A stretch of DNA of 64,000 bases, from NCBI GenBank assembly GCA_041674805.1, contig JBAYVA010000001.1, forward strand, positions 198,612-262,611, written 5' to 3'. This stretch comes from Candidatus Magasanikiibacteriota bacterium (GTDB lineage: Bacteria; Patescibacteriota; Patescibacteriia; Magasanikbacterales; UBA922). The notes beneath the pieces are model-generated. The model saw nothing but the letters and a program-made list of their open reading frames with translations, had not been told where the DNA came from and made no database searches. The stretch's first letter is position 1. The number at the start of each line of letters is the position of its first letter. The translations under genes and the position numbers were made by a program. Shown here piece by piece: positions 2,257 to 62,855 of the stretch.

Positions 2257-2414
2257 AGTATTAATAGTATAAAAGTAATTTTGAAATAAGTTTCTTAATA
2301 GCGTAACTTTTTAAAAGTAGTATTCACAGATAATTTGTTTGTGAATTGTTTATAAGTATATCATTTTTATGGGGAATGGCAAGATATTTTGTTTATTGTT
2401 TATAATATTCAAGT

Positions 2415-4193
2415 ATGTTACAATTCAAGCATTATATTTTCAAAAAAATTTTATTTATGCATTTTTTTTCTTATTTAAAAGAACATTTTATTGTTTTTAT
2501 TTTTTTATTAACCTTTTCATTTTTACCAAGCATTACCAAAGCTGATTCAGTTCCTTATGTCGGAGTGAGAGACGAGGGTTTGAGTGTGGAATACATTAGT
2601 CAATCAGTTGATGACGATATTCAAATCAAAGCGGGGGACAGTGTAAATATTATTTTCAAATTCAAAAATATTGGTACAAAAACTTGGGACAGTAACAGCA
2701 AAAATTATATTTCTGCTTTCACTATGGAACCTCGTTATCGTAATTCTGAATTTCGAGGTGACAACTGGTTGGGCGCTTATGAGACAGCCAAAATAAATGG
2801 ACAAGTGAAACCTGGAGAAATAGCTGAGTTGTCTTTGAACTTGAAAGCACCAAATAAACCTGGTAAATATATAGAAAAATTCTATTTGGCTTCAAACAAC
2901 TATTCATGGGTAAAAAATGGATACTTTTTTGTTGTTTTGAATGTCGTAGAAAATGTTACAGTTAGTGATATTGTCCCTGTCGTTAATGATGAAATTAGTC
3001 AAGTAGTTAATACTGTTGTAGCTACAACTACCACAAAAAATCTTAGTTTTTCTAGTGGAAAATTGTCAATGATTAGTAGTAAAGATTTTATTGCTAAAGG
3101 TGGGCAACAAATTCCTTTTATTTTGGGTTTTCAAAATTTGAGTCAAGTTGCTTGGAATGGTTATACTATTGCCATAACTGATGACAGCAAAGATTATAAT
3201 TTCATTGATGATGATTGGGCTTCAGCCAATGTAATTCTTTCACAAGATAAAGAAATTGTATCTTATACTAATACTCGTGATACTATTTATCTGCGAGCAC
3301 CAAACAAGCTCGGTGAGTACAAACTTAGATTACAGCTTTTTAGCGATAAAAAAGAAGTAGTAGGTGCTTATGTAGATATTATAGTAAGAGTGTTGGTCGA
3401 AGCAGAAGAAAATTATCTAGTAGCAAGCAAAAGTATTGATACAAATTATGTTTTTGAAATAGTAAAAGATGATAGAGAATATTTAGATAGTTTTGATTTG
3501 GTAAAGCTAAATAAAAAATTAAATACCTATTTGCCAGTGCTCATGTTTCATTATATAGAAGATATTTCTGCCAATACATCTGACAAACTTCGTTATAATT
3601 TGTCTTTTTCGCCAGAAAAGTTGGAGCAATTTTTGCAATATTTCAAAAAAAACAACATTGAAACTCTGACTTTTTGGGATGTAAAAGATATTTTGGAAGG
3701 TAAGAAGGATTTGCCAAAGAAAGCTGTGATTCTTACTTTTGATGATGGTTATGTGAGTCATTATAAAGACGCTTTTCGTCTTTTGCAAAAATATGAGATG
3801 AAAGGTGTGTTTTATATAATTACCAATGCTACTTTCAATACTAAAGAGCATCTCAATTGGGAGCAAATAAAAGAAATGTCTGATGCTGGTCAAGAAATAG
3901 GTTCACACACTGTCAATCATTTGGATTTGTCTTTGGTTAGCTTGGAAAAGCAGAAAAAAGAAATAGTAGATTCTAAAAAAATGATAGAAGAAAAAATTGG
4001 TAAGCCTGTAATTTCTTTTTGTTATCCTTCTGGAAAATATAGTAGTACAGCGCTAAAATTGGTAAAAGACAATTATCTTTTTGCCAGAACTACACAAGCG
4101 GGAAAATATTTTTCTTTTGATAACAGATATGAAAATCCAACAGTGAGAATTTTTCCCACAAGTGGTTTTACTTTGTTAGATATTTTGTTTTAA
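2415..4193 (+). CDS. Secreted polysaccharide deacetylase (NodB-homology domain) with an N-terminal beta-rich domain. An alternative start at M2457 is possible.
   Basis: Signal/anchor peptide. C-terminal NodB motifs (ILTFDDGYVSHY; GSHTVNHLDL; CYPSG). Confidence 0.75.
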   Translation: MLQFKHYIFKKILFMHFFSYLKEHFIVFIFLLTFSFLPSITKADSVPYVGVRDEGLSVEYISQSVDDDIQIKAGDSVNIIFKFKNIGTKTWDSNSKNYISAFTMEPRYRNSEFRGDNWLGAYETAKINGQVKPGEIAELSLNLKAPNKPGKYIEKFYLASNNYSWVKNGYFFVVLNVVENVTVSDIVPVVNDEISQVVNTVVATTTTKNLSFSSGKLSMISSKDFIAKGGQQIPFILGFQNLSQVAWNGYTIAITDDSKDYNFIDDDWASANVILSQDKEIVSYTNTRDTIYLRAPNKLGEYKLRLQLFSDKKEVVGAYVDIIVRVLVEAEENYLVASKSIDTNYVFEIVKDDREYLDSFDLVKLNKKLNTYLPVLMFHYIEDISANTSDKLRYNLSFSPEKLEQFLQYFKKNNIETLTFWDVKDILEGKKDLPKKAVILTFDDGYVSHYKDAFRLLQKYEMKGVFYIITNATFNTKEHLNWEQIKEMSDAGQEIGSHTVNHLDLSLVSLEKQKKEIVDSKKMIEEKIGKPVISFCYPSGKYSSTALKLVKDNYLFARTTQAGKYFSFDNRYENPTVRIFPTSGFTLLDILF

Positions 4194-4210
4194 GTTTCAT
4201 AAAAATAAAA

Positions 4211-4248
4211 AAACAATCTCGATGAATATCGGGATTGTTTTAAATTAT
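4211..4248. terminator. Hairpin terminator (acaatctcgat/atcgggattgt) shared by convergent genes
   Basis: 11-bp stem with one G-U pair, flanked by A/T runs. Confidence 0.5.
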
Positions 4249-4269
4249 GTTAGGTGATGTCGTTGAATT

Positions 4270-4584
4270 TTATAGCATTTTCTTCTTTTCTCCTTTGAAA
4301 GCGTGCCAGGCACCTTTGATTGATAGTGCAAATGATAAAATGACTATTGTTAAACCAGTATATATCAAAAATTTTGAGGCAACACTTTCCCATAGAAGGC
4401 CCAGAAACAAAATAACTATTCCTGGTATAATGACCATTTTTATTATTTTGTTTTCTTGTTCAAAATGGAACTTAGTAAATTCTGAATTAGTTTGGGTTAA
4501 CCATGATATTACATATCCAAGTTCGAAGAGATAAGCTGATGCGGCGACAATTTTTTCTTGTTTTGTAGTGTTAGTCGTTTCCAT
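4270..4584 (-). CDS. Small membrane protein (DUF4870-like)
   Basis: Two to three TM helices and an AASAYL motif; weak family resemblance only. Confidence 0.4.
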   Translation of the reverse strand: METTNTTKQEKIVAASAYLFELGYVISWLTQTNSEFTKFHFEQENKIIKMVIIPGIVILFLGLLWESVASKFLIYTGLTIVILSFALSIKGAWHAFKGEKKKML

Positions 4585-4619
4585 AATTTTTTGTTTAGTA
4601 AATAAAAAAATTGGTTAAA

Positions 4620-5138
4620 TTATTTGCTGAAAACAGATACAAATCTTCCTTCGTAGAGAAGTTTGACTACTTCTGTTGGACTGAATATTTTTCCATTCAT
4701 ACAAACATAAATGCCTGGTTTTAGCTCATGAATTTTTGCAATAGAATAACCTAGATTAAATGGAGCATCAGATGGTGAAAAACCAAGAAGTGGAATCATA
4801 CTGCCTGTAAAAATAATAATTTTATTATGTTTACCAAGATTTGCATCTAAATAGCGTGCTGTGTCTGGCATGGTATATGTTCCGTGGGTCACAATAAATT
4901 TTTTGTGAGGACTTTTTTTAATTTCTTTCAATACATTTGCAAGATCACTTTTTTTCAAGGCTCTACTATCTTTCATACAAATGGTTGTAAACTCTGTTTT
5001 TTCGTGGAGTTTCAGACTTTTTATATAGGCTGGTATTGAGGATTCTTTCAAAGTGTCTACTGTATCTTTTACGCCATTATAAAAAGAATCTATGGTACCA
5101 CCAGTTATGATGAAATGGATTGCATTTTTTTGTGTCAT
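4620..5138 (-). CDS. L-asparaginase N-terminal-domain-like protein (stand-alone, 172 aa)
   Basis: IITGGTIDS and HGTYTMPDTARYL resemble the asparaginase TGGTIAG and hGTDTMeetA motifs. The C-terminal domain is absent. Confidence 0.45.
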   Translation of the reverse strand: MTQKNAIHFIITGGTIDSFYNGVKDTVDTLKESSIPAYIKSLKLHEKTEFTTICMKDSRALKKSDLANVLKEIKKSPHKKFIVTHGTYTMPDTARYLDANLGKHNKIIIFTGSMIPLLGFSPSDAPFNLGYSIAKIHELKPGIYVCMNGKIFSPTEVVKLLYEGRFVSVFSK

Positions 5139-5314
5139 AATATTTAAAACAATTATAAATTCATATTACAATCATATCAAAAAAACAGTGACTTTTCAAT
5201 CCCGACCTAGTCGGGACGAGAAATTTTGATTTTTTATAACTTGCTATGAAGATGTTCTTTTTTATATTTTGTTAGTTTATTGTAAAATAATTAGTTACGC
5301 TGTTTTTGTATTAC

Positions 5315-5611
5315 TTATTTAAAATATTTTTTGGCACTTGGTCGGCGATGAGGACAGCCGGGCCAACAACAAGGTCGGCGTTTACCGGCCAGAAGATCAT
5401 CACACAAGCGGTCTAGATGTTCTTTTCTGGTTTCTTGTTTTTTTACGATGGTAACCCAACATATCCACTCGTTTCGGGCGAGGGGAGTGAGGCTGTTCCA
5501 TTTTTCAAGTACTTCTTTATTGGAAGCCAATGTTTCTTTCAAATCAGCCGGTATTTTGTGGAGTGTAAAAGGGGTGATTTGTTTGGGCATATTTTTATTA
5601 GTTATCGGCAA
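5315..5611 (-). CDS. YdeI/OmpD-associated (DUF1801-like) family protein
   Basis: NEWICWVTIVKKQETRKEHLDRL motif and a GC-rich C-terminal KRRPCCWPGCP tail. Confidence 0.5.
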   Translation of the reverse strand: MPITNKNMPKQITPFTLHKIPADLKETLASNKEVLEKWNSLTPLARNEWICWVTIVKKQETRKEHLDRLCDDLLAGKRRPCCWPGCPHRRPSAKKYFK

Positions 5612-5775: not shown

Positions 5776-6231
5776 TTACGAAAGTGTCAATTTATATGTG
5801 ATTCCATCTTTCCATTCTGGATTATTCCATTCTTCAAAGCCTAATTTTGCACAAAGTTTTTGCATTGGAAGATTTTCAAAAGCTGTTTCAGTAATTACAT
5901 ATTGAGATTTATGTTTTTTGGCATGGTTTATACAATCCTCCATAAGTTTTTTACCAATTTCTTGCTTTTGAAAATCTGGATTTACGAATATTTCACGAAT
6001 AAAGAAACAATTATTTTCCCACCAGTCTGTGTCACAAGAAACAAATCCGACAAACTCATCTTCTTGTTTCGCAACAATATAAAGGCTATTTTCTCTATTA
6101 AAATTATTTTTTAATAGGTCAATTGTTTTTTTGCCATATTTATAGGAAAAACCTTTATAAATTGATTCTTTATTGTGTAAAATTTCAATTTCATCTTTGC
6201 TTATTACTTTGTGATAAACGATATTGATCAT
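5776..6231 (-). CDS. GNAT family N-acetyltransferase
   Basis: Acetyl-CoA binding motif (IREIFVNPDFQKQEIGKKLME). Confidence 0.7.
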   Translation of the reverse strand: MINIVYHKVISKDEIEILHNKESIYKGFSYKYGKKTIDLLKNNFNRENSLYIVAKQEDEFVGFVSCDTDWWENNCFFIREIFVNPDFQKQEIGKKLMEDCINHAKKHKSQYVITETAFENLPMQKLCAKLGFEEWNNPEWKDGITYKLTLS

Positions 6232-6317
6232 AGAAAAATTTTTTCAAAAAAGTAAAGGTACAACGTTTATTAGAATTTTTTATTTCAGCTAACGTTCGCG
6301 TTTATGCGATGTGATAA

Positions 6318-7004
6318 TTAGTTTTCGTCCTTTGCAAAGTAGATCTCACCTGTTTGGGGCAAATTAAATTTATTAATTAGATATTTGACTAGTTGTTTGG
6401 TTGATTCTATCCTATCTTCTGGATTAGAGAGATATACTTTCTCATAAAGTTTAAAAAAATCCCTGTCTATTTCTTTTATTTTACTTTCCAATTGAAGAGA
6501 TTTTGGTAGCCACTCATTGTTCAATTCAAAAAAAAGTTTGACCATTTTATCCATGATTACATCCCACGAGTGATAAGCAAGTGTGCTGTTAGGTTTATTC
6601 AGTGTGTGTAAAAACATTGTACAGAGATATCCGGCCTCTTTTGGATCATTTTTTGGACCGAGTGACCAAACCCTATTTGCTTTTTTTTGAATTGTTTTCA
6701 TTTGTCCTGATTTGTCAAACACAATTTTACCGTGTGCAATAATTGAAAGTTCAGCATTACTTACTTTATCACGCCTAAAATCCTGATTATTGATAACTTC
6801 CGCCGTAGCACAGCAAATATCTACTAACAGACCTTTGTAGTGAAATGTTTTGTAATATGATTTACCCTTGCTTATTAGCACAGTGAAATCGTAGTCACTT
6901 GTGGCTACAAAGTCTCCTTCAATTCTACTTCCAGCATAAATTATACCCTCGCAAAAAGGGATTTTTTTAAGCTTTTCGATAATCAAATTTACGTTTGTAT
7001 CCAT
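6318..7004 (-). CDS. Nucleotidyltransferase-domain protein (Pol-beta superfamily, ANT/Lnu-like)
   Basis: GS-x9-SDYDFTVL nucleotidyltransferase signature at the N-terminus. Confidence 0.5.
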   Translation of the reverse strand: MDTNVNLIIEKLKKIPFCEGIIYAGSRIEGDFVATSDYDFTVLISKGKSYYKTFHYKGLLVDICCATAEVINNQDFRRDKVSNAELSIIAHGKIVFDKSGQMKTIQKKANRVWSLGPKNDPKEAGYLCTMFLHTLNKPNSTLAYHSWDVIMDKMVKLFFELNNEWLPKSLQLESKIKEIDRDFFKLYEKVYLSNPEDRIESTKQLVKYLINKFNLPQTGEIYFAKDEN

Positions 7005-7186
7005 AATAGAAAACTAATTTTTATTTCGCATAACATTTGTTATACGAACTCTTTAAAATAGTCGCTAAATTACGCTATTTATTTTAAATAAATATAAATT
7101 TATAATTAGCTAAAAATCCATACTTTTATCATATCAAAAAAACAATCCCTTCACAAGAGATTGTTAAAATTAAATAGTATAGGAGT

Positions 7187-7237
7187 GGAGAACGTAAGTT
7201 CGCCAATTTTTGTAAACAGGGCGAACTTACGTTCTCC
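7187..7237 (-). terminator. Perfect 18-bp inverted repeat hairpin (ggagaacgtaagttcgcc / ggcgaacttacgttctcc, 15-nt loop), 16 nt downstream of the sod stop
   Basis: Read directly from the sequence; the strongest stem-loop in the window. Confidence 0.6.
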
Positions 7238-7252
7238 AATCCTTGTAGCTTT

Positions 7253-7837
7253 TTATTGTAGTCTTTCCTCAACCATCTTCCAATTCACATGATCCCAAAA
7301 TTTAGCAATGAAGTCTGGACGGGCGTTGCGGAAATCTATGTAGTAAGCATGCTCCCAAACATCTAGAGTAAGTAAAGGTTTTTTGCCTTCTGTCAGGGGA
7401 GTATTGGCATTGCTGGTTTGTAATATTTCCAATTTGCCGTCACTAGTCTCTACTAACCAAGTCCAGCCAGAACCAAATAGGGAAGTGGCAGCGGTAGTAA
7501 ATTTTTCTTTGAAATTTTCTAGTGATTCAAAATTTTCAGCAATTTTTGTCAAAGTTTTTCCACCAATTGCTTGAGATTCTGGAATAAGAGATTCCCAAAA
7601 AAAACTATGATTGAAATGTTGAGCTGAATTATTAAATACAGCCATATTTTTTTCACTATTGGCAGTCTTGATGACTTCTTCCAAGTCTTTGCCGACATAG
7701 TCTGTACCTTCTATGGCTGCATTTAGCTTGTTTACATAAGCAGCATGATGTTTGCCATGATGATAATCAAAACCTTCGGCTGTACAAAAGTCTGGCATAG
7801 AATCTTTGGCAAAAGGTAAATTTGGTAGTTCGAACAT
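7253..7837 (-). CDS. sodA: Superoxide dismutase [Fe/Mn]
   Basis: DVWEHAYYIDFRNARPDF and FNNSAQHFNHSFFW signatures. Confidence 0.9.
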   Translation of the reverse strand: MFELPNLPFAKDSMPDFCTAEGFDYHHGKHHAAYVNKLNAAIEGTDYVGKDLEEVIKTANSEKNMAVFNNSAQHFNHSFFWESLIPESQAIGGKTLTKIAENFESLENFKEKFTTAATSLFGSGWTWLVETSDGKLEILQTSNANTPLTEGKKPLLTLDVWEHAYYIDFRNARPDFIAKFWDHVNWKMVEERLQ

Positions 7838-7895: not shown

Positions 7896-8882
7896 TTAAT
7901 ATCCTAAGATATTTTTTCTTTTTTCAGTCCAAGCAATAGTATCCTTTATTCCTTGTTCTATACTTAGTTCAGCTTTCCAATTTAGTAGTGTATAAGCTTT
8001 TTGTGAACTTGCATAGCCACCAATTACGTCACCTGGTCTTCTTGGTTTATTTTCTTTAGCAATTTTGTATCCAATTACATTTTCAAAAGCTTGGATGAAT
8101 TCCAATACTGTAGCACCTTTTTCTGAACCTAAATTTATCACACAATATTTTTCAGTAATTTTTTCAAATTTTTCAAGAGCAAGCATATGGGCACGAGCTA
8201 AATCCCAAACATGAACATAATCTCTAATAGCAGTACCATCTCTTGTTTCCCAATCAACACCTGTAATAGGCATATTTTCTTTAGTTGCTTGTGTTTTTAG
8301 TATTACGCCTAGTAAATGGCTAGGATTTGCCAACTGTGAACCACTACGAAACTTTGGGTCGGCTCCGACCGGATTGAAATATCTAAGCGAAATAACTTTG
8401 AAGTCATACGCTTTACTAAAATCTTCTAAAATATTTTCAATTATAATTTTAGTATTAGCATATGGACAATTTGCCTTTAGAGGACTTTTTTCATTTACTT
8501 GTAATCCTTCGTCATTGTCATAAATAGAAGCAGACGAGCTAAAAATTATTTTATTTTGGCCTAATTCTATAAGATTATGAAATAATTCTAATGATTTTAC
8601 AACATTTTCTTTGTAGTATTTGTAAGGTTGTGCGACAGATTCAGGTACTACTATGATGGCTGCACAATGAATTGTACAGTATATATCCTTATTTTCAGTA
8701 AAAATTTGTTTTAGTAATTTTTTATCAGCTATATCACCTTCATAAAATATTTTGTTTTTAGTAAATTCTTTTTTTCCTGTTACCAGAGAGTCCAAAATAA
8801 TTGGTTCAATACCTGTATCTTGCAAATATGATGCAATAGTACTACCAATATAGCCGGCTCCTCCTGTAATTAATACTTTCAT
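7896..8882 (-). CDS. galE: UDP-glucose 4-epimerase (NAD-dependent epimerase). The start is placed at the internal MKVLITGG; the longer ORF to 8942 runs through an intergenic palindrome.
   Basis: Rossmann motif VLITGGAGYIGS, a YxxxK region, NPVGA. Confidence 0.85.
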   Translation of the reverse strand: MKVLITGGAGYIGSTIASYLQDTGIEPIILDSLVTGKKEFTKNKIFYEGDIADKKLLKQIFTENKDIYCTIHCAAIIVVPESVAQPYKYYKENVVKSLELFHNLIELGQNKIIFSSSASIYDNDEGLQVNEKSPLKANCPYANTKIIIENILEDFSKAYDFKVISLRYFNPVGADPKFRSGSQLANPSHLLGVILKTQATKENMPITGVDWETRDGTAIRDYVHVWDLARAHMLALEKFEKITEKYCVINLGSEKGATVLEFIQAFENVIGYKIAKENKPRRPGDVIGGYASSQKAYTLLNWKAELSIEQGIKDTIAWTEKRKNILGY

Positions 8883-10572: not shown

Positions 10573-10617
10573 GCAATTTAAGCAAAGTAAGCAGAATAGG
10601 CAGATTAAGTAGATTTT

Positions 10618-10653
10618 AAAAAACGTTCTCAGAGTTGAGAACGTTTTTTTGTT
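10618..10653. terminator. Hairpin terminator (aacgttctca-gagt-tgagaacgtt plus T7) between convergent genes
   Basis: 10-bp stem and a T-run. A sibling of this sequence occurs at 52670. Confidence 0.6.
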
Positions 10654-11952: not shown

Positions 11953-12205
11953 AGTTATATTATTATAGATGATTTAATCATAGCAAAAATAGGCAGAATA
12001 AGCAAAGTAAGCAGAGTAGGCAGAATAAGTAAATTTTATTTGAATATTTGGATAATTTATCTAAACAAAGCTATTTTTAAGATATGAACAATTGAATGTT
12101 TGAAAGAAAATAGCTATAATATACGTATTAATTGATGACTACGTGGATAACTGTTGTTTTTTACTAATGTGATTTGTAATAAATAGCGTAGTAATTCTAT
12201 AAATT

Positions 12206-16175: not shown

Positions 16176-16259
16176 AGGTGTTAAAGGCTTGAAATGCCTG
16201 AAAAGCTAGAAAGGCTCAAAAGGCTTTAATGTGTGAATATTATAGCAGTGTTTATTATA

Positions 16260-19059: not shown

Positions 19060-19245
19060 CTGCTTAAGTGAGCAGAAAGATGTAAAAATATTTCTTATTG
19101 TGATAAAAAATAAGAATTTTTTTCCTGCTCGGGATAAATTATACTTGAAGACCGGACTTAACTTTTGTAAAAGTTTTACCGTTGCGGCACAGTGGAGGAA
19201 TTTGACCTCACTTCCAACAAATATAAATTAATTTGTAATATTGTT
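19060..19245 (-). ncRNA. Candidate cobalamin riboswitch / structured attenuator leader upstream of the DUF4430 operon
   Basis: On the minus strand the leader reads GGAAGUGAGGUCAAAUUCCUCCACUGUGCCGCAACGGUAAAA...AAGUCCGGUCUUC. This resembles the cobalamin-aptamer GGUG.AA.UCC, CCACUGU, CCGCAACGGUAA and B12-box-like elements. Two hairpin+U-tract terminators follow; the second ends in U8 directly before the AUG. Confidence 0.4.
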
Positions 19246-40589: not shown

Positions 40590-40619
40590 TTGACGTTATT
40601 AATTCGCGGGTGCTATAAT
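40590..40619 (+). promoter_or_regulatory. Promoter (TTGACG-18nt-TATAAT) for the Big_2 surface-protein gene
   Basis: Consensus-like hexamers. Confidence 0.5.
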
Positions 40620-40647
40620 AGAATTATACAAATTTAGTATGATATGT

Positions 40648-40684
40648 TCCCGACTAATTTATCCGCCTTGGGCGGAGTCGGGAC
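40648..40684. repeat. Nested GC-rich palindromic element (tcccgac ... tccgccttgggcgga ... gtcggga) in the 5' leader
   Basis: Read directly; related copies at 42448, 59891 and 62615. Confidence 0.6.
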
Positions 40685-40830
40685 AAGAGAACTTGATTTA
40701 CAATAATTTATCACTAAAACATATTTTCTTATATTTTATAAGTTTATTGCAAGATAGTTGATTATATATAATATAACTTTTGGCTTGGACAATTCAGAAT
40801 TGCTTAGACCAAAGGTCGAATATTTAATTT

Positions 40831-42435
40831 ATGTATAATTATAATTATATGAAAAATACAATAAAAAAAGTTAAGGTACTTTCCTTAACAGCGGTGTTTG
40901 CTCTGTCGGCAAGTTTTGTGTTTTTGCCATTTTCGGTAAAAGCCGTAACTGTTGATAGTACTAACCCGACCGTAGCTATTACTTCACCAGCTCAAAATGC
41001 TGTAGTATCTGGTATGTCTTCGATAGTTGTCGACACAACTGATGCTTATTCATCGTGTGTGGTTACTTTGTTTGGTTCAAAATATGATGTTTCTCCCTTA
41101 CAAACTGATCATTCTGGAGGAAATCTATTTATTTGTGGTACAGACATGACTGCTATCTACCAATCTCAACATGGTACTAATCTGTCTCGTGTCGCTTCTT
41201 ATCTAATTCCTGCAAGTTATATTGGTGTTAACAAAGTAGAGTTTTATTTTGATGGTATGTTGTTTGGTACAGACATGACTGCTCCTTATTCATTCGATTG
41301 GAATACTGCTATTTTCGCTGATGGTATACATGCTTTAGCAGCTCGAGCCTATGATCAAGCTGGGAATGCTAGTACTTTTTCAATGGTAAATGTTACTATT
41401 GATAATACACCAGTAGATGAAGATCCTGTTATAACAAGCATAGCTTTGACACCAACAACATCTAGTATTTATGTAGGTAATACCGTACAATTGACAGCTG
41501 TAGCTCTAGATCAATATGGTAATGCTTTAGCAACACAACCAACCTTCGATTGGATGTCAAATATTACAAGTATTGCTATTGTGAATGCAACAGGTCTAGT
41601 TACTGGTGTTAGCTCAGGTTCTGCAACTATTACTGTTACTGATGATGTAAGTAATGTTAGTAAAACAGCTGTGGTCAATGTTGCAAATGTGGCACCAGTC
41701 ATAACAAGCATAGCTTTGACACCGACAACATCTAGTATTTATGTGGGTAATACTGTACAATTGACAGCTGTCGCTCTAGATCAATATGGTAATCCTCTAG
41801 CAACACAACCAACCTTCGATTGGATGTCAAATCTTACAGGTATTGCTACTGTGAATACTATGGGTTTAGTTACTGGTGTTAATATGGGTTCTGCAACCAT
41901 TACTGTTGTTGATGATGTAAGTAATGTTAGCAAGACAGCTGTGGTCAATGTTATGAGTACTCCACCTCCAGCAGTTATAGGTAAGATAAAAGTAGAAATG
42001 GAACATGGCAAAGCCGAAATTCATATCAAAGTAAATGGTATGGAAGATGAATTCAAAATGTATAATTCAACTAAAGCAGAAGTAGTAGCTGCTATTACTG
42101 CTAGAACAGGCTTGACTATTGAACAAGTTTTGCAAATAGCAGAATTTGATATGCACAATGAAAACGAACATGGTGATGATCAAAACAATGGACATGGCGA
42201 TGAAAATGGAAACGAACATGGTGATGATCAAAACAATGGACATGGCGATGAAAATGGAAACGAACATGGTGATGATCAAAACAATGGACATGGCGATGAA
42301 AATGGAAATGAACATGGTGATGATCAAAACAATGGACATGATGAAGACGAAGATGAAGATCGTGGTGAACGTCGTGAAAATCATGAACGTCGAAATAATG
42401 AAGACAATAATCACCATGAAAACAGTGATGATTAA
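40831..42435 (+). CDS. Secreted protein with two Big_2 (bacterial Ig-like) domains and a C-terminal His/Asp/Asn-rich 15-aa tandem repeat (NEHGDDQNNGHGDENG x4)
   Basis: Signal peptide. Duplicated ITSIALTPTTSSIYVGNTVQLTAVALDQYGN...ATITV. A 45-bp nucleotide tandem repeat at 42160-42340. Confidence 0.7.
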   Translation: MYNYNYMKNTIKKVKVLSLTAVFALSASFVFLPFSVKAVTVDSTNPTVAITSPAQNAVVSGMSSIVVDTTDAYSSCVVTLFGSKYDVSPLQTDHSGGNLFICGTDMTAIYQSQHGTNLSRVASYLIPASYIGVNKVEFYFDGMLFGTDMTAPYSFDWNTAIFADGIHALAARAYDQAGNASTFSMVNVTIDNTPVDEDPVITSIALTPTTSSIYVGNTVQLTAVALDQYGNALATQPTFDWMSNITSIAIVNATGLVTGVSSGSATITVTDDVSNVSKTAVVNVANVAPVITSIALTPTTSSIYVGNTVQLTAVALDQYGNPLATQPTFDWMSNLTGIATVNTMGLVTGVNMGSATITVVDDVSNVSKTAVVNVMSTPPPAVIGKIKVEMEHGKAEIHIKVNGMEDEFKMYNSTKAEVVAAITARTGLTIEQVLQIAEFDMHNENEHGDDQNNGHGDENGNEHGDDQNNGHGDENGNEHGDDQNNGHGDENGNEHGDDQNNGHDEDEDEDRGERRENHERRNNEDNNHHENSDD

Positions 42436-42447
42436 TTCAGAATTTAA

Positions 42448-42462
42448 TCCGCCCAAGGCGGA
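42448..42462. repeat. GC-rich palindromic element tccgcccaaggcgga (inverted relative to the copy at 40662), 13 nt after the stop
   Basis: Read directly. Confidence 0.6.
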
Positions 42463-42503: not shown

Positions 42504-42538
42504 AAAAACCTCTCCGAATTGCGGAGAGGTTTTTTTAT
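42504..42538. terminator. Bidirectional terminator (cctctccg-aatt-cggagagg followed by T7)
   Basis: 8-bp GC-rich stem. Confidence 0.65.
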
Positions 42539-47459: not shown

Positions 47460-47528
47460 TAAAAAAGAACGTGATAAAATCACGTTCTTTTTGGCTCTCT
47501 GTATGGGACGATGTCGGAATTTTTTTAA
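47460..47528. repeat. 67-bp element (hairpin gaacgtga-taaaa-tcacgttc followed by ggctctctgtatggga...), copy 1. It forms a direct repeat with 48568-48634, flanking the lipoprotein gene.
   Basis: About 90% identity between the copies. Confidence 0.6.
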
Positions 47529-47602: not shown

Positions 47603-48550
47603 ATGGGATCAATACTAGCAAAAGGGGCTATCCTTTTCAGCATTACCTTACTTATTACGGGATGTAATGTGGACGTCGGCTCAAAACTAAATACTGAAAC
47701 AAAAGAAAACCTGGATTCAACTGTAGTTGAAAATCAAGATTCAATTAAAGAAGACACTAAAAAAGAATCTAACATCGTAGAGACTGGTGAAGACAAAGTA
47801 TCTTCTGATGTAGAGGAGGAATCTAAAATCGAAGAAGCTAATAAAGAAGAAAAAACTTCGGCTACTCCAACAAAGACATCTCAAACAGTCCAAGTTGTTA
47901 TCAAAGATAAACAAGGAAATGAATTATATAATGATTTTTCTGTTGCTTTTGAAGAAAAAGAAACGGGTAAACAGATTCGTAAATTTCCTACAGGTAAAAT
48001 GCTAGTTTTTTCCAATGTTCCTGTTGGGGAATATAATTTAATTGTACATCCTGTGGTAAGAGATAGTTACACAGAAACAATATATAAATATCAAAAGATG
48101 GATATTTCAATTCTTGGAGATAGTAATGAAGATGTAAGAACAATTGTAATTACAGCTGAAGATAAACCAGAGGAACAAACAGAATCTTCTAGTACTTCTC
48201 AAGAATCTCAAGCTAGTGATAATACTAATGATGTAGCTCCTAGTGTAGCAACAAAAACGTCTCAAACATTTCAAATTATAATTAAAGATTCACAAGGAAA
48301 TGAAATATACGATAGATTTACTGTTGCCTTTGAAGAAAAAAGTACAGGTAAACAAATACGTAAATTCCCTACAGGAAGTATGCTTATTTTTTCTAAGGTC
48401 CCTGCTGGAGAATATAACTTACTTATAAGTCCTGTATTAAAAGTAGGTGAAACAGAAACAATATACAAATCACAAAAGATGGATGTTTCAGTTCCTGGAG
48501 ATAGTAATGAAGATGTAAGGACACTTGTAGCAATGGCTGAAGTCAAATAA
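47603..48550 (+). CDS. Lipoprotein with two about 110-aa tandem repeats (Ig/carboxypeptidase-regulatory-like beta domains)
   Basis: Lipobox LITGC. The repeat TSQT.Q..IKD.QGNE.Y..F.VAFEEK.TGKQIRKFPTG.ML.FS.VP.GEYNL occurs twice. Confidence 0.6.
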   Translation: MGSILAKGAILFSITLLITGCNVDVGSKLNTETKENLDSTVVENQDSIKEDTKKESNIVETGEDKVSSDVEEESKIEEANKEEKTSATPTKTSQTVQVVIKDKQGNELYNDFSVAFEEKETGKQIRKFPTGKMLVFSNVPVGEYNLIVHPVVRDSYTETIYKYQKMDISILGDSNEDVRTIVITAEDKPEEQTESSSTSQESQASDNTNDVAPSVATKTSQTFQIIIKDSQGNEIYDRFTVAFEEKSTGKQIRKFPTGSMLIFSKVPAGEYNLLISPVLKVGETETIYKSQKMDVSVPGDSNEDVRTLVAMAEVK

Positions 48551-48567
48551 ATATAAAAAGATATATA

Positions 48568-48634
48568 AAAAAGAACGTGACAAAATCACGTTCTTTTTTG
48601 GCTCTCTGTATGGGATGAGGTTGGAACTTTTTTT
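48568..48634. repeat. 67-bp element, copy 2 (it also acts as the terminator of the lipoprotein gene)
   Basis: See 47460-47528. Confidence 0.6.
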
Positions 48635-48710: not shown

Positions 48711-49703
48711 TTATTCAATTCTAGCGACTAAATCTTGTATTTTGAATGTTGTAAAGTATAAATCAGCACACTCTATAGCAAAAACTTCAATATCATCACG
48801 ACCGTGTTCATCCAGCAAATCACGAATATTATTTATTTCTTTTAGAGGTACACCAATAGCCTTAATTATTTCTGGTAAAATTGATCTCATAGTACGGACT
48901 TCATGTGCTGATCCTAGAGGGGGTTTTTGAAAAGGAATTTTATTTTTATCAAGACATAAAATAATTCCTATATTGTTTGGTATATCAGATTCACCATTTA
49001 GAAGGTTGTTTGCTGTTGTTTGAAAAGTAGTATCATTACGATAGCTTCTTGTCCAATTTCTAAGTTTATTTTCATATTTTGTAGCCCTTTCTTTTTTAAT
49101 ACCTACTCTTTGTTTGTGCTTTTTAATATATTCTAATCCTGCCTTTGAGATTTTTTCGGCACGAACTGAATCTGCCATAAAAAATCTAAAAAAATCATTT
49201 GGATCACCAAGTTGCCATTCTGGCTTATTGTCTTTTGTCATGTATTTTGCTGCAAACCATTTTGCATAAAAATAGCTACCAGCTAAAGATACACTTTCCA
49301 TATCACCATCAGGCATCCAAGGGTCTTCATGAATTTTCAAACCTTCATCTAGAATTTTTTCAAAAAGTTGAACTGTATTAGGGGTATCTTGTTGATCAGT
49401 ACTATATTTGTCCCTATCATATTTATAAAAACCTGTACCATGATATAATAAATCTTTTTTTAATCCTTCTTCTGGTGTGCCAAAAAGTTTTTCTAGTTGT
49501 TTTTTTTGTTCTTTATAAGCTGTATTGACTTCTGGACTTGGAAGTCCTTCTACATCTAAATATTCTATGATTTTTTTATCAAGTAATTCGGGTGTTCGTA
49601 TTCTTATCATTTCTAAAAGAAATTGTTTATTTTGTTCGTGTGTAGATTCTAGGAGTTCTTCTCCTGTTGCGAGCATATGCTCATATCTAGCTCTTTCACC
49701 CAT
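48711..49703 (-). CDS. Hypothetical protein (330 aa), adjacent to the intron-containing tRNA
   Basis: ORF only; no recognisable motif. Confidence 0.4.
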   Translation of the reverse strand: MGERARYEHMLATGEELLESTHEQNKQFLLEMIRIRTPELLDKKIIEYLDVEGLPSPEVNTAYKEQKKQLEKLFGTPEEGLKKDLLYHGTGFYKYDRDKYSTDQQDTPNTVQLFEKILDEGLKIHEDPWMPDGDMESVSLAGSYFYAKWFAAKYMTKDNKPEWQLGDPNDFFRFFMADSVRAEKISKAGLEYIKKHKQRVGIKKERATKYENKLRNWTRSYRNDTTFQTTANNLLNGESDIPNNIGIILCLDKNKIPFQKPPLGSAHEVRTMRSILPEIIKAIGVPLKEINNIRDLLDEHGRDDIEVFAIECADLYFTTFKIQDLVARIE

Positions 49704-49819
49704 AAAATTATTGTTATTTTTTATACTTTAATATATTCTACCATTTTTTAAAAAATAAATCTAAGTATTTTATATTTATATAACAAAAAAACGCTAATTA
49801 AAGCGTTTAAATGTGTTTG

Positions 49820-50321
49820 CTCGGCGAGTGGGGCTCGAACCCACGACCCACTGGTTACAGTTTCCTCTCTCTTTCGAAAAAGACTGGACTATTTCATCAC
49901 CCATGCCATAAGCCCCGATAAATCGGGGAGCATTAAGGGTGCGGAGCGCTTCGAATCCGTTTCTGCGAATCCTACTCCCACAAGGGGATAGTCTCTGAAC
50001 CTTCTTATTTTTTCAGAAGTATTTGTTTATAGACAAACCTTGAAAACAAGGATCTACAATTTATTACTTCAATTTTACCGAGGTAAAAATTTGAAAAGAT
50101 AAGCTTGGCTGCAGGTTGCCATCTTGACCTAAATCAAGAACAGGTTTCCTGTCTAACAAATCTATTTAGATCTGCAGTTTCTGCTATTACAATTAAGTAA
50201 GACAGAACAGTTCACTCCGTTGGCACTGTGGTGTTTCCACCGCAGGCTGCTATATTTAATTCCAATAAATCAGAATTACTTCTTTTAACAGCCAGTTGCT
50301 CTACCGCTGAGCTACCGCCGA
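49820..50321 (-). tRNA. tRNA-Asn(GUU) interrupted by a ~430-nt group I intron in the anticodon loop. Exons are 50288-50321 and 49820-49857; the intron is 49858-50287. CCA is not encoded.
   Basis: The joined exons give a 72-nt cloverleaf: UCGGCGG-UA-GCUC-AGCGGUA-GAGC-A-ACUGG-CUGUUAA-CCAGU-GGGUC-GUGGG-UUCGAGC-CCCAC-UCGCCGA-G. The intron carries group I R (GUUCAGAGACUA) and S (AAAUAGUCC) elements forming P7. The 5' exon ends in U and the intron ends in G. Confidence 0.65.
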
Positions 50322-51844: not shown

Positions 51845-51976
51845 ATAAGCAAATTAAGCAAGGTAAGCAGAATAGGCAGAATAAGTTGTAAGCCTCGTAA
51901 GCATATGTTTAATTAGAGAACCTTTCAAAAATATATTTAATAAAAAATAATTAATAACATTTAAATTTAAAACGCT

Positions 51977-52702: not shown

Positions 52703-52889
52703 TTATAAAGTCACAATGTAGATACTTTGCTAAATTAAAATTTTGTGTTAAAATATAGCAATCATTAAATCATTAAAATTTTCTAGATAATTTTTTAGAA
52801 TCAATTAAAAGTATTATTATCTAGAAATATTTATTTTAAAAAATGATCCCTCTCCGTCCTTCGGCGGTTCGGGATGACGGAAAAATATT

Positions 52890-53477: not shown

Positions 53478-53557
53478 AAGCAGAATAAGCAGATTAAGAT
53501 TTTATAATAAAAAAATAGACTAAATAACTTAGTCTATTTTATTTTGAAAAGATGTGC

Positions 53558-53595
53558 CTCCGCCCGCGTTGTCTTGTCGACTCCGCGGGCGGTAC
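53558..53595 (-). terminator. GC-clamp hairpin terminator (ccgcccgcg ... cgcgggcgg) for the small hydrophobic-peptide gene
   Basis: 9-bp perfect GC stem, followed on the minus strand by a U-rich tract. Confidence 0.55.
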
Positions 53596-53598
53596 TCC

Positions 53599-53736
53599 TT
53601 ACTTCTTCTGCGTGGCCTTTCCGGCCTTGGGGTTGTGTCCCCCAAAGGCGGTGACGACGAGGAAGAGGATCGGATAGGCGATAATGCCAATAATGATCAA
53701 GATGATCATCGCCAGCATCTTAAAAAAATCTACCAT
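53599..53736 (-). CDS. 45-aa hydrophobic peptide (MVDFFKMLAMIILIIIGIIAYPILFLVVTAFGGHNPKAGKATQKK) inside a GC-rich island; type I toxin-like or small membrane protein
   Basis: Manually translated. Preceded by AGGAGAGGG and followed by the GC-clamp terminator. Local GC is about 55-60% against a background of about 30%. Confidence 0.4.
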   Translation of the reverse strand: MVDFFKMLAMIILIIIGIIAYPILFLVVTAFGGHNPKAGKATQKK

Positions 53737-53850
53737 ACCCTCTCCTTGCTCCTCGCACCGCGCGAAGAACCTTCATATTTAACTACTTTTTTAATCGAAT
53801 GTCAATAAAAAAAGCAACTATGCTTGTGTAGTTGCTTTTATGTTTTCATG

Positions 53851-57040: not shown

Positions 57041-57115
57041 ACAATTCGGATATACGGATAATACGGATGTAAACTACGGAATAAAATATTTGTGTTATTT
57101 TTTAATTAAAAAAAT

Positions 57116-58183: not shown

Positions 58184-58316
58184 CACAAATACCACAAATA
58201 CTAGACGAATAACACAAATGTGATTTTAGTTATTTGTGTGGATTCGTTAATATTTGTGTTATCCCCAGCTATTTAAATGTTACAAACAAAAAATAAGTAA
58301 AATCTTTTAAACAAGT

Positions 58317-59765: not shown

Positions 59766-59890
59766 ATGATTGATTTTAAAATAAATAAAATATGATTATA
59801 TAATATCTTAGAATTAATTTTTTTGCAAATTTAAAACAAAAAACCAACTTGTAATAAAGTTGGTTTTTTACCCTTTTCCAAAATTGGTTT

Positions 59891-59927
59891 TAGCCTTTCC
59901 AGCGTAGACGGGTCCGCCTTGGGTGGA
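59891..59927. repeat. 37-bp GC-rich element (agcctttccagcgtagacgggtccgccttgggtggac). It is the inverted partner of 62615-62651; together they bracket clpB.
   Basis: Reverse complement matches 62615-62651 at 33 of 37 positions. Confidence 0.7.
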
Positions 59928-59962
59928 CAGGCCTTTTTGGCCTTTCTAGCATTTCAAGCCTT

Positions 59963-62602
59963 TTAGGCCTTTATATCAATCTCACCCTTCACCACTTCAA
60001 TCTTCACCTCACTACCTTCATGAATCTTTTTTTCTACTATTTGCATAGCTAATTTATTGAGAAGCTCTGTCTGAAGTACACGTTTTAGAGGACGTGCTCC
60101 AAGATTTTCATCAAAACCTTTTTTGGCCAGCCAATCTTTGGCTTTGTTAGAAATCTTGATAGAAATTTTTTGTTTTTTGAGACGTTTTTCAATTGCCAAA
60201 ATTTGTAAATCTACTATTTGACGAATTTGTTTTTCGTTTAGAGAATGGAAAACAATGATGTCATCGATACGATTCAAAAATTCTGGTTTGAATTGTTCTT
60301 TTAGAGCTGACATGACAGCCTTATTTACTTTATTATTATTTTTATCTTTGTCTTTTTTATTGTCACTAGTTTCAAAACCAAATTCTCCTTTTTTACCCAT
60401 AGACATAATAATATCACTGGCAATATTACTTGTCATAATTATTACAGTATTTTTGAAATTTACTTTGCGACCTTTGGCATCTGTCAGATGTCCATCTTCT
60501 AGAATTTGGAGCATGATATTGAAAGTATCTGGGTGTGCTTTTTCTATTTCGTCAAATAGAATTACTGAATATGGTTTTCTTCGCACTATTTCTGTCAATT
60601 GTCCACCTTCATCAAAGCCAACATAGCCAGGAGGGGAGCCAATCATCTTGCTTACCGCGTGTTTTTCCATATATTCTGTCATATCTACGCGTATCAAGGC
60701 TTCTTCATCATTGAACAAGAATTCTGCCAAAGCTTTGGCTAATTCAGTTTTTCCTACACCAGTTGGACCCATGAAAATAAAAGAACCAATAGGACGTTTT
60801 TCTTCAGCAATACCAGCCCGACTACGACGAATAGCATTGGAGACGGATTGTATAGCTTCTTCTTGTCCGATGACACGTTTGGTGATTTCTTTTTCCATTT
60901 TGGCAAGTTTTATTACTTCATCTTCCAACATTTTGTTTAGTGGAATGCCTGTCCAACGAGAAACTACGCGGGCGATGTCTTCTTCTGTTACTTCTTCTTT
61001 GAGAATACTGTTTGTCTTTTGTAAATCAGCCAACTTCATTTCATATTTTTTGATAGCTTTTTCTATCATAGGAATCTTGCCATAACGAAGCTCAGCCACT
61101 TTTTGCAAGTCACCTTTACGTTCTTCTATTTCCGAGTTTTGTTTTAATTTGTCTATTTCTTTTTTATGTTCACGAATTTTGGTAATAATATCTTTTTCAT
61201 TAGTCCATTGCATTTCTATTTCTTTACTTTGATCTTTCAAATTTGCAAGTTCTTCTTTCAATTTTTGTTCACGTTCTTTACTTTCATTGTCAGTTTCTTT
61301 TTTGAGTGCTTTTAGTTCAATTTCTATTTTCATTATTTGACGTTTCATTTTGTCTAGATTGTCTGGCATTGAGTCTATTTGCATTTTTAGAGCACTAGCC
61401 GCTTCATCAATAAGATCAATCGCTTTGTCTGGCAATTGTCTGTCGCTGATATATCGATTGGAAAGTTGGACAGAAGAAACAATAGCAGGATCAGTGATTC
61501 TTACACCATGATGAATTTCATATTTTTCTTTGATACCACGCAAAATTGCGATAGCATCTTCTGTTTTTGGTTCTAGAACTAAGACTGGTTGGAAACGACG
61601 TTCAAACGCAGCATCTTTTTCAATATGTTTTTGGTATTCTTTTATAGTAGTAGCACCAACTACATGCATTTCACCACGAGCTAGGCCTGGTTTTAGCATG
61701 TTTGAAGCGTCTACAGCACCTTCAGAGCTACCAGCACCCACAATAGTGTGTAATTCATCAATAAACAAAATTATTTTGCCTTGGGCTTCTGTCACTTCTT
61801 TGATTACAGCTTTGAAACGTTCTTCAAATTCACCTCTAAATTTGGTACCAGCGAGTAGGGAACCGATGTCCAAAGAAATGATTTCTTTGTTTTTCAAATT
61901 TTCTGGTACATCTCCATTGACGATTCTTTGAGCCAAGCCTTCGACAACTGCTGTTTTACCAACGCCAGGTTCACCAATAAGCACTGGATTATTTTTTGTT
62001 CTGCGAGTAAGTACTTGCATGACACGACGAATTTCATCGTCACGACCAATCACTGGATCAAGTTTTTCTTTGCGAGCACGCTCGGTCAAATTGATGCCGT
62101 ATTTTTCCAGAGCTTGATATTTACTTTCTGGTTCAGGACTGTCGACACGTTGATTGCCACGTATGTCTTTTAGTACATTCAAAATGTCTTGGTATTGTAC
62201 TTTTTGACGAGAGAGAGCGTCGCTAATTGGGTTTTTGTTAGTCAAAAAAGCAAGAAGCAAATGTTCAACACTAATAAATTCATCGTGCATTTTTTTGGCT
62301 TCATTGTCAGCATTTTGTAAAATAAAAATCATGGCTTGGCCAAGCGTTACTTGTCCAATATTACGATTTTCCGGCATTGCTTGTTTTGGAATGGCGTTTA
62401 TCATTTCTTGAACCTCGGTTTTTAGCTGTTCAATATTGACATTTAGTTTTTTGAAAATAGAAACAACAACACCTTCACTTTGATTGAGTAAACTCAAAAA
62501 TAGGTGAGGTGGTTCTATCTGTGTTTGGCTATTTTGGGTAGCAATATTTTGCGAATTTTGAATAGCTTCTTGTGATTTGTTTGTAAAATTTTGGGGAAAC
62601 AT
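59963..62602 (-). CDS. clpB: ATP-dependent chaperone ClpB (AAA+ disaggregase)
   Basis: Clp_N domain, two Walker A motifs (GEPGVGKTA; GPTGVGKTE), a coiled-coil middle domain; 879 aa. Confidence 0.95.
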
Positions 62603-62614
62603 ATATAAAGGCTT

Positions 62615-62651
62615 ATCCGCCCAAGGCGGACCCGTCTACGCGGGAAAGGCT
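62615..62651. repeat. 37-bp GC-rich element (atccgcccaaggcggacccgtctacgcgggaaaggct), 13 nt upstream of the clpB start
   Basis: See 59891-59927. Confidence 0.7.
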
Positions 62652-62663
62652 ATTAATTTATAA

Positions 62664-62690
62664 TTATCACTCTAATAGAGTGAGTGATAA
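62664..62690. promoter_or_regulatory. CIRCE-like inverted repeat TTATCACTC-N9-GAGTGATAA upstream of clpB (candidate HrcA-type operator)
   Basis: Perfect 9-bp IR with a 9-nt spacer, the same architecture as CIRCE TTAGCACTC-N9-GAGTGCTAA. Confidence 0.45.
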
Positions 62691-62855
62691 TACTATAACA
62701 TGCTGGAAAAATTTGTCAATATGTGCTAAGATAAGACAAGTTAAGAGTTTGTAAAGTTATAAAGTTGAAAGTATTATAATCTTATTATATATTATTTTTT
62801 ACTTTATTTAAATATATTTTCTGTATAATCTTTATAAATTAATGAAAGCAGTGCT

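Follow-up and report, generated by a model that had tools for sequence, protein, structure and literature searches.

In a 64,000-nt stretch of DNA from Candidatus Magasanikbacteria (hereafter the window), the heat-shock gene clpB lies between two G+C-rich inverted repeats, and the palindromic core of these repeats recurs on both sides of a Big_2/Big_7 surface-protein gene. This arrangement raises the question of whether the repeats act in pairs on the genes that they flank or are copies of a dispersed element. We consider it probable that the four palindromes of the window are copies of a short, selfish repeat family of the Patescibacteria (candidate phyla radiation, CPR), similar to repetitive extragenic palindromic (REP) sequences and Rickettsia palindromic elements (RPEs). 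They belong to a dispersed family, are present in some close relatives and absent from others, have histories that differ from arm to arm, and lie inside transcription units. Elsewhere in the family, stem variation is compensated, copies occur in frame within genes, and filled sites can be compared with empty ones. The source of the window was placed via its ClpB homologues, and its G+C content is 30.7%.

The sequence-only reading of this DNA had described a near-perfect 37-nt inverted repeat around clpB. Direct reading together with a repeat search confirmed it, with 2 mismatches in the 37 nt, and extended the complementarity to 46 nt (59891-59936 versus 62607-62652; 42/46, 91%), the two arms being 2670 nt apart. 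The spacing reported earlier was also correct: the left arm ends 35 nt past the clpB stop codon, and the core of the right arm stands 12-13 nt ahead of the ATG. Each arm contains two hairpin units (Table 1). With up to 2 mismatches allowed, the core TCCGCCTTGGGCGGA occurs four times in the window, at 40662 (+), 42448 (-), 59913 (+, 1 mismatch) and 62616 (-), and it had 0 occurrences in 100 dinucleotide-preserving shuffles of the window. A predicted promoter, the best-scoring site in the region, lies upstream of the 5' arm, which places this arm within the transcript as part of the 5' untranslated region (UTR). The putative terminator downstream of the 3' arm forms a 14-bp hairpin in the fold of the 3' UTR; it was missed by a consensus terminator scan, and orthologous terminators are found in three relatives (L002, L204 and L004). 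Against Rfam at the gathering threshold, the whole window gave only a group I intron and an adenosylcobalamin (AdoCbl) riboswitch, the repeats having no match, and permissive scans of the clpB and Big_2 loci returned only sub-threshold, terminator-driven noise. A tRNA-derived origin of the palindromes was rejected, as ARAGORN was empty across the window.

The unit of the family is a 15-nt G+C-rich hairpin with a 6-bp stem and a 3-nt loop (xxxGCC-N3-GGCxxx), and two units usually stand in tandem (~30 nt). We scanned GTDB r232, one genome per species, for the core followed by seven A/T within 30 nt. The scan returned at least 119 loci, at least 66 of them CPR-labelled and drawn from about 15 candidate phyla. 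Among the matches listed, the CPR labels comprise Magasanik-, Morani-, Sacchari-, Buchanan-, Nomura-, Staskawicz-, Doudna-, Falkow-, Kerfeld-, Pace-, Berkel- and Daviesbacteria, Microgenomates, Parcubacteria and 'Patescibacteria group'. Those that are clearly non-CPR are single hairpins, often terminator-like, and about 8 loci, some 7 of them with tandem copies, bear the label 'uncultured Gammaproteobacteria', which is unconfirmed. In the same set, the core abuts a second 15-nt hairpin in 62 of 130 occurrences; examples are CCAGCCCGAGGCTGG followed by TCCGCCTTGGGCGGA and AAAA, and a 30-nt perfect palindrome made of TCCGCCCAAGGCGGA and TCCGCCTTGGGCGGA. The 54 perfect upstream units listed have 10 different stems, all fully complementary, including TCCGCC/GGCGGA, CCAGCC/GGCTGG, TCAGCC/GGCTGA, CCCGCC/GGCGGG and CCCGTC/GACGGG, and these 54 tandem elements mostly have a 5' flank of TTTT or ATTG and a 3' flank of AAAA. 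Unit A of the clpB leader, CCCGCGTAGACGGG, was recognised in a metagenome scan as a decayed CCCGTC-CGA-GACGGG unit.

These data bear on the idea that the palindrome is a protein-binding site, its 6-3-6 dyad serving as an operator or architectural site for a dimeric CPR protein that loops gene ends together. The dyad is perfect, and the identical 15-mer occurs in many CPR phyla, both of which favour such a site. Adjacent units, however, differ in stem sequence and yet stay complementary, a pattern more in keeping with a hairpin than with a sequence-specific operator, and copies lie in housekeeping ORFs (open reading frames), in 3' UTRs and within other palindromes, at positions that are not conserved. 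We regard this explanation as very unlikely. Two further candidates were discarded. With 3 perfect units in 64 kb (4 with mismatches allowed) and 0 in several ~22-kb loci of relatives, the density is far too low for a DNA-uptake sequence; and 68 matches in IMG/VR, no contig having more than one and most having a GC content of 40-70%, with unrelated flanks, resemble chance hits and not a phage origin.

The family also enters genes. Among the matches listed, about 24 tandem copies fall within long ORFs, about 22 of them in the unit-aligned frame that reads S-A-x-G-G, and 29 long ORFs carry the element in this frame. The inserted peptides consist of SAQGG followed by -SASGG, -SALGG or -PASGW. Host ORFs, named from conserved motifs, are LeuRS, ClpB, DnaK, SecA, GyrB, AlaRS, GAPDH, UvrC, DnaJ and an FAD-oxidoreductase, and the metagenome scan added an in-frame copy in IleRS. 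In ClpB, the insertion occupies a variable loop ahead of the RPEF(L/I)NR motif. In-frame placement is a feature of the family; the window's four copies are all in UTRs. A filled site and its empty counterpart were compared at locus L083 (Magasanikbacteria RIFOXYD12_FULL_33_17), which is ~91% identical in nucleotides to window positions 2377-5596. At 2140-2210, between a stop codon and a terminator, L083 carries a 53-nt nested palindrome complex in which a TCCGCCCAAGGCGGA-TCCGCCTTGGGCGGA dimer is split at its junction by a CCTGCCTG..CAGGCAGG palindrome; the corresponding window position (~4210) is empty. No target-site duplication of the 15-30-nt units was seen at filled sites. At another locus (L143, 4670-4800), upstream of tRNA-Arg(GCG), a duplicated 20-nt tRNA 5' end is interrupted by the 15-nt core plus 4 nt.

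The clpB loci of relatives, retrieved by exact protein look-up and by a metagenome scan with an 18-mer of the element, show that the arms come and go. L001, whose ClpB is identical to that of the window, has both arms. L002 and L003 (ClpB 93%) have the 5' element and a decayed 3' arm, and L200 (RIFOXYD12_FULL_33_17; 95% over a partial protein) has the 5' element, its 3' side being taken up by an assembly gap beyond which the contig ends. L204 (90%) carries the 5' element and lacks the 3' arm, with a short 9-nt array ahead of its terminator. Neither arm is present in L004 and L005 (90%), whose leader is a 9-nt-periodic GCCTTTnnn array, in L008-L010 (92%), whose leader contains an ATCCGnnnn array, or in L006, L011 and L012 (79-82%). 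The two-unit 5' element, 29 nt long, is common to L001, L002/L003, L200 and L204. Mapped on the ClpB tree, ((W,(L002,L008)),(L204,L004)) with W the window, this distribution makes the 5' element patchy within a clade of ~90% identity and limits the 3' arm to the window and L002. The earlier suggestion that the palindromes might be REP/MITE-like elements is supported both by the dispersed CPR family and by this presence and absence between close relatives.

At the 5' site, the element stands in place of array units between TAGCCTTT and TAAGC. Read as its reverse complement, the clpB 3' UTR of the window runs TAGCCTTT, two units, CAGGCCTTT and then array units of the GCCTTT type. The 3' arm is probably a fuller version of the leader with its element, copied in inverted orientation. 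The last clpB codons, ATA AAG GCC TAA AAG, are native, since L004 has the same ones. In L002, the 3' arm has undergone two uncompensated changes (GGCGGA to GGCGTA and AAAGGC to AAAAGC), and a third change, CTGG to CGGG, restores one pair with the 5' arm. Directly downstream of clpB, L010 carries a gene pair resembling an insertion sequence (6096-7378; HTH_Tnp_2 plus rve integrase), where the window has a hypothetical gene of 243 aa.

Around the Big_2 gene, the core was said to recur in inverted orientation. Both copies are indeed present; as the core is itself palindromic, nothing but the 3-nt loop (TTG versus CAA) distinguishes one orientation from the other. The 5' copy was correctly described as nested in a TCCCGAC...GTCGGGA hairpin, and this hairpin opens a 118-nt insertion whose boundary is a direct reading of the window against the loci of two relatives. 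In both of these, L201 (76% amino acid identity) and L202, TTTAGTATGA is joined straight to ATTATATATAAT. The insertion matches window positions 5209-5292 over 84 nt at 71% identity (E = 2e-7), within a second copy that starts with TCCCGACCTAGTCGGGA (TCCCGAC-CTA-GTCGGGA) and holds no nested core; this copy is absent at the orthologous site of L083. The 5' core of Big_2 therefore sits in the hairpin loop of a different insertion element. That element is possibly MITE-like (miniature inverted-repeat transposable element): at 118 and 96 nt its copies are MITE-sized. Terminal inverted repeats were not established, and as to target duplication, one copy shows at most a possible 3-nt TGA. The 3' UTR of the Big_2 relative in L201, core included, is identical to that of the window. 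As L201 has the 3' core and lacks the 5' insertion, the two Big_2 copies are independent events. A direct duplication of the Big_2 flanks was considered and rejected; beyond the core, the local alignment scored 31 against a shuffle maximum of 30, which is not significant. Obligatory bracketing of the two genes fails at both loci, with a 5' arm and no 3' arm at clpB in L204 and a 3' copy and no 5' copy at Big_2 in L201.

Table 1. Positions of the repeats, the genes they flank and other features of the window.
Feature	Position	Strand	Remarks
clpB	59963..62602	-	879 aa; complete ClpB domain set
clpB 5' arm	62607..62652	-	5' UTR; TAGCCTTT + unit A + unit B + TAAGCCTTT
Unit A of 5' arm	62631-62644		CCCGCGTAGACGGG
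Unit B of 5' arm	62616-62630		TCCGCCTTGGGCGGA
clpB 3' arm	59891..59936	-	3' UTR between stop codon and terminator; inverted copy of 5' arm
Unit A' of 3' arm	59899-59912		
Unit B' of 3' arm	59913-59927		1 mismatch
AAAGGCnnn mini-array	59931..59973	-	9-nt period; from last clpB codons into 3' arm
Putative intrinsic terminator of clpB	59838..59869	-	hairpin + T run, downstream of 3' arm
CIRCE-like inverted repeat	62664..62690	-	TTATCACTC-N9-GAGTGATAA; between promoter and 5' arm
Promoter-like site of clpB	62692..62719	-	TTGACA-16-TATAGT with TG; 11/12 matches
Big_2/Big_7 surface-protein gene	40831..42435	+	
Promoter-like site of Big_2	40590-40619		precedes 5' copy
Big_2 leader insertion	40643..40760	+	118 nt; opens with TCCCGAC[taattta + core]GTCGGGA
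Hairpin in leader insertion	40648-40683		TCCCGAC...GTCGGGA
Big_2 5' core	40662-40676		nested in the hairpin
Big_2 3' core	42448..42462	+	TCCGCCCAAGGCGGA; 3' UTR, starts 12 nt past stop, upstream of terminator
Terminator of Big_2	42504-42534		
Second copy of insertion element	5200..5295	+	96 nt
tRNA gene split by group I intron	49815-50320	-	RF00028 at 49865-50281, 65.7 bits
AdoCbl riboswitch	19106-19242	-	RF01482, 62.3 bits; upstream of DUF4430 gene and 736-aa gene

The inverted placement had also been put forward as a possible site of inversion, at which a site-specific recombinase would flip the gene and uncouple it from its promoter. Inverted copies do flank both genes, with promoter and terminator outside them, and a surface protein is plausibly phase-variable. 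The clpB element nevertheless has a single orientation in all six contigs that carry it (window, L001, L002, L003, L200 and L204), and a Pfam search of 66 of the 69 window ORFs turned up no domain of a recombinase or invertase, the neighbouring genes encoding transglutaminase-like, hemerythrin and GNAT proteins. The Big_2 copies, moreover, share only the 15-nt palindrome, with an orientation set by 3 nt, and the arms were gained separately. Phase variation by inversion is scarcely credible here.

We then weighed pairing of the two ends at the RNA level, in which the clpB arms would anneal within the mRNA for RNase III processing or end protection, with the Big_2 cores behaving alike. Several points favour this. 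The predicted intermolecular duplex of the clpB arms comprises 46 bp with 4 mismatches at -85.7 kcal/mol and would be long, near-perfect double-stranded RNA of the kind seen in an RNase III stem, whereas for the local folds, two hairpins in each arm, the predictions are -14.9 and -18.3 kcal/mol; for the Big_2 cores, the predicted pairing is -34.3 kcal/mol. Both arms lie inside the transcription unit, from promoter to terminator, two lineages (the window and L002) keep both, and RNase III cleaves transcribed repeat hairpins of Neisseria Correia elements (PMC10969869). The comparison with relatives points the other way. Partners occur singly in L204 and L201, and neither arm exists in L004 and L008 (ClpB 90-92%). 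The 3' arm of L002 has been weakened by its uncompensated changes while the 5' arm stayed fixed, and the core mismatch in the window is C·A on the mRNA strand, not G·U. Each arm would, besides, fold locally during transcription, the 5' arm 2.7 kb before its partner is made. We think it improbable that end pairing explains the bracket. The stems around 16S and 23S rRNA that RNase III processes are likewise formed by long-range complementarity around a 2.7-kb transcript segment, but those are conserved and co-varying, whereas the clpB arms are lineage-specific, separable and decaying.

A thermosensor-like bracket had been proposed as well; in the form weighed here, the bracket or the 5' hairpins would occlude the clpB start in the cool and melt on heat shock. 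It is true that clpB is a heat-shock gene, that its hairpins reach to 12-13 nt from the AUG and that leaders elsewhere in the genome are unstructured (84% A+T and 6% G over the 69 window ORFs), and a structured leader before a heat-shock gene is what ROSE and fourU thermometers also have. Yet Shine-Dalgarno-like tetramers (GGAG, GAGG or AGGA at -20..-4) are absent from all 69 window ORFs, so there is no such site for the clpB hairpin to sequester. In minimum-energy folds from 20 to 45 C, the two 5' hairpins are unchanged and the element does not pair with the AUG, and at a predicted -85.7 kcal/mol the duplex is far too stable for heat-shock melting. The G+C-rich, nearly perfect stems are unlike those of melting thermometers, and, in contrast to ROSE and fourU, the clpB leader lacks Shine-Dalgarno pairing and a conserved structure. 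Close relatives have clpB leaders without the element; what they strictly conserve instead is an operator, TTATCACTC-N9-GAGTGATAA, which we take to be like CIRCE (controlling inverted repeat of chaperone expression; TTAGCACTC-N9-GAGTGCTAA). The window, L002 and L004 share it without a difference, and L204 and L008 depart from it only within the N9 spacer. Taken as a block, promoter and CIRCE-like repeat match at 100% between the window, L002 and L004, though their ClpB proteins are only 90-93% identical, and L204 and L008 show few differences. This block would already supply heat-shock control. We give the thermometer almost no weight. Variants of the CIRCE-like repeat and promoter are also seen upstream of clpB in L006, L011 and L012, and for several window genes no more than ~20 nt separates a -10 box from the ATG, a sign that their leaders may be short or missing altogether.

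Nor is the motif a generic terminator found at all gene ends, the outcome that the sequence-only reading had named as fatal to its own proposal. The motif is rare; on the mRNA strand its cores are followed by UAAGCC, CCCGUC, GUCGGG and CAAGGU, none of them a U run, and hairpins with a T run, read as the real terminators, lie further downstream. Stabilisation of the mRNA by local stem-loops, also suggested at the outset, is possible.

The REP sequences tagged GTAG or CGTC and their mosaic forms (bacterial interspersed mosaic elements, BIMEs) are among the known systems closest in kind. They too are short G+C-rich stem-loop palindromes, single or as adjacent dimers (Di Nocera et al. 2013, PMC3733652), are found chiefly in the transcribed flanks of genes, in many cases downstream of ORFs, are uneven among strains, and include some intragenic copies that add a short peptide (PMC3733652). 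Like them, the CPR palindromes are G+C-rich stem-loops in a dispersed multi-copy family of variable occupancy. They differ in length (REPs 20-40 nt, the unit here 15 nt), in their low copy number in the window, and in the identity of the unit across many candidate phyla. The conserved tag is missing: an unpaired GTAG or CGTC was not found, GTAG appearing only in the loop of the decayed clpB unit A and CGTC only within some stems. RAYT, the Y1 HUH transposase associated with REPs, was not found among 66 of the 69 window ORFs. RPEs are confined to one genus and encode 20-50 residues. Like the palindromes here, they are palindromic repeats of a reduced-genome, host-dependent lineage and occur both between genes and in frame within functional housekeeping genes; the first described were ~150 bp (PMC10969869, PMC3733652), compared with 15-30 nt and 5-10 residues (S-A-x-G-G) here. 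Intragenic REPs and RPEs are precedents for copies within genes (PMC3733652, PMC10969869).

The Correia/NEMIS elements of Neisseria and the ERIC elements of Yersinia, both MITEs, are co-transcribed repeats whose inverted repeats form RNA hairpins. Such hairpins can be targets of RNase III or RNase E and thereby alter mRNA level (PMC10969869); should the clpB arms have any effect, this would be its closest precedent. The elements differ in being 70-300 bp long, with terminal inverted repeats and target duplications, and in forming the hairpin within one element and not between copies 2.7 kb apart. MITEs span 50-500 bp, and the 15-30-nt units are too short for that class. The kind of element is thus already known from REPs, RPEs and intragenic REPs; as a family, with its 15-nt unit, tandem dimers, S-A-x-G-G peptides and CPR-wide range, it appears to be new. 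A full-text literature search, limited in reach, found no description of a CPR palindromic family or of the core, and one may exist elsewhere. To the broader proposal, that this is a CPR-wide, so far undescribed, ultra-short family (15-nt unit, mostly two-unit) that colonises UTRs, other palindromes and, in frame, housekeeping genes, we assign a little less than an even chance.

The history of the four copies may be reconstructed along these lines. At clpB, a two-unit element (a now decayed CCCGTC-CGA-GACGGG followed by TCCGCC-TTG-GGCGGA) would have entered the leader between TAGCCTTT and TAAGC; in the lineage of the window and L002 alone, the leader with its element would later have been copied in inverted orientation into the AAAGGC array of the 3' UTR. 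At Big_2, the single unit in the 3' UTR would be older, and the 5' copy would have come separately, nested in the 118-nt insertion element. Spread may proceed by hairpin-dependent copying, through either a trans-acting enzyme or template switching. In mRNAs, the units would simply form local stem-loops with at most a modest effect on stability or translation, and we infer that the bracket has no dedicated function.

Several observations weigh against the selfish-repeat explanation. Both core-bearing genes of the window are bracketed, for which we estimate a chance of ~0.3% given 4 copies among ~70 spacers. The clpB arms share 46 nt, flanks included, and their predicted duplex is the strong one given above (-85.7 kcal/mol). 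No mobilising enzyme was found among 66 of the 69 window ORFs, in which Pfam domains of transposases, recombinases and RNase III were all absent, nor was there any sign of target-site duplication. Copies are few (4 in 64 kb, 0 in several ~22-kb loci of relatives), and the identity of the 15-mer across distant CPR phyla could reflect a conserved function.

Both clpB arms are embedded in 9-nt arrays, and such arrays recur through the window. Arrays of 4-6 units occupy UTRs at 10573-10618, 11969-12038, 16176-16224 and 51845-51894; further ones lie at 53478-53505, 57041-57085, 58184-58225 and 59931-59973, as well as in the clpB leaders of L004 and L008. In 3' UTRs they are purine-rich on the sense strand (AAGCAGAAT, AAAGGCnnn, ACGGATnnn and CACAAATAC), and in 5' leaders they are the complements (GCCTTTnnn, ATCCGnnnn); complementarity between the array at 16182-16224 and that of the clpB 3' UTR reaches 84%. 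They are not specific to heat-shock genes, as GCCTTT/AAAGGC also flanks genes for DUF6580, DsbA-like, M23 peptidase, exonuclease and cysteine desulfurase proteins. Their scatter over many gene ends would set them apart from tandem interspaced guide RNA (TIGR) arrays, which have a longer period and adjoin a Tas gene.

A second hairpin family, also G+C-rich (GATCCCTC...GGGATGAC), occupies the leaders of unrelated genes and stops ~10 nt short of the ATG (window 52847-52881; L002 1752-1810 and, reverse-complemented, 8025-8090; L004 8370-8440, reverse-complemented). The copies in L002 and L004 come after a palindrome, CCTGCCTGCCGGCAGGCAGG, within repeated intergenic modules of ~200 nt. The Big_2 gene contains two 258-nt internal repeats at 41425-41952, and the C-terminal part of its protein (42109-42396) is encoded by 24/48-nt tandem repeats rich in Asn, Gly, His and Asp. 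Another gene, 47603..48550, has a 299-nt internal duplication and is flanked by direct module copies (47461-47526 and 48568-48633; 90% identical), each a palindromic terminator plus a 39-nt G+C-rich segment. The intron-split tRNA gene, missed by ARAGORN, has exon halves at 50282-50320 and 49815-49864 with the anticodon loop CUGUUAA and is probably tRNA-Asn(GUU); the 330-aa ORF beside it (48711..49703) has no Pfam match. An unusually G+C-rich segment at 53549-53771 overlaps only a weak 84-aa GTG ORF, gives nothing above noise in Rfam and may be an unrecognised structured RNA.

For clpB, a regulatory story built on a thermosensor, an inverton or an obligatory bracket loses support, and the locus is explained by its conserved promoter and CIRCE-like operator together with a fast-evolving leader and trailer. 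If the broader proposal is true, the same unit in more than 12 candidate phyla implies either a conserved, hairpin-specific trans-acting machinery or frequent exchange among Patescibacteria, and the family would be the smallest known system of selfish DNA in protein-coding genes, residing in the most reduced genomes of free-living size. Should the pattern stand up to a census of whole genomes, selfish DNA of the REP/RPE type is tolerated and spread even by the smallest, most streamlined bacterial genomes, and the family would serve as a marker of strain-level variation in CPR metagenomes. Insertions of 5-10 Gly/Ser/Ala residues in CPR proteins may then be repeat-derived, a warning for annotators and modellers.

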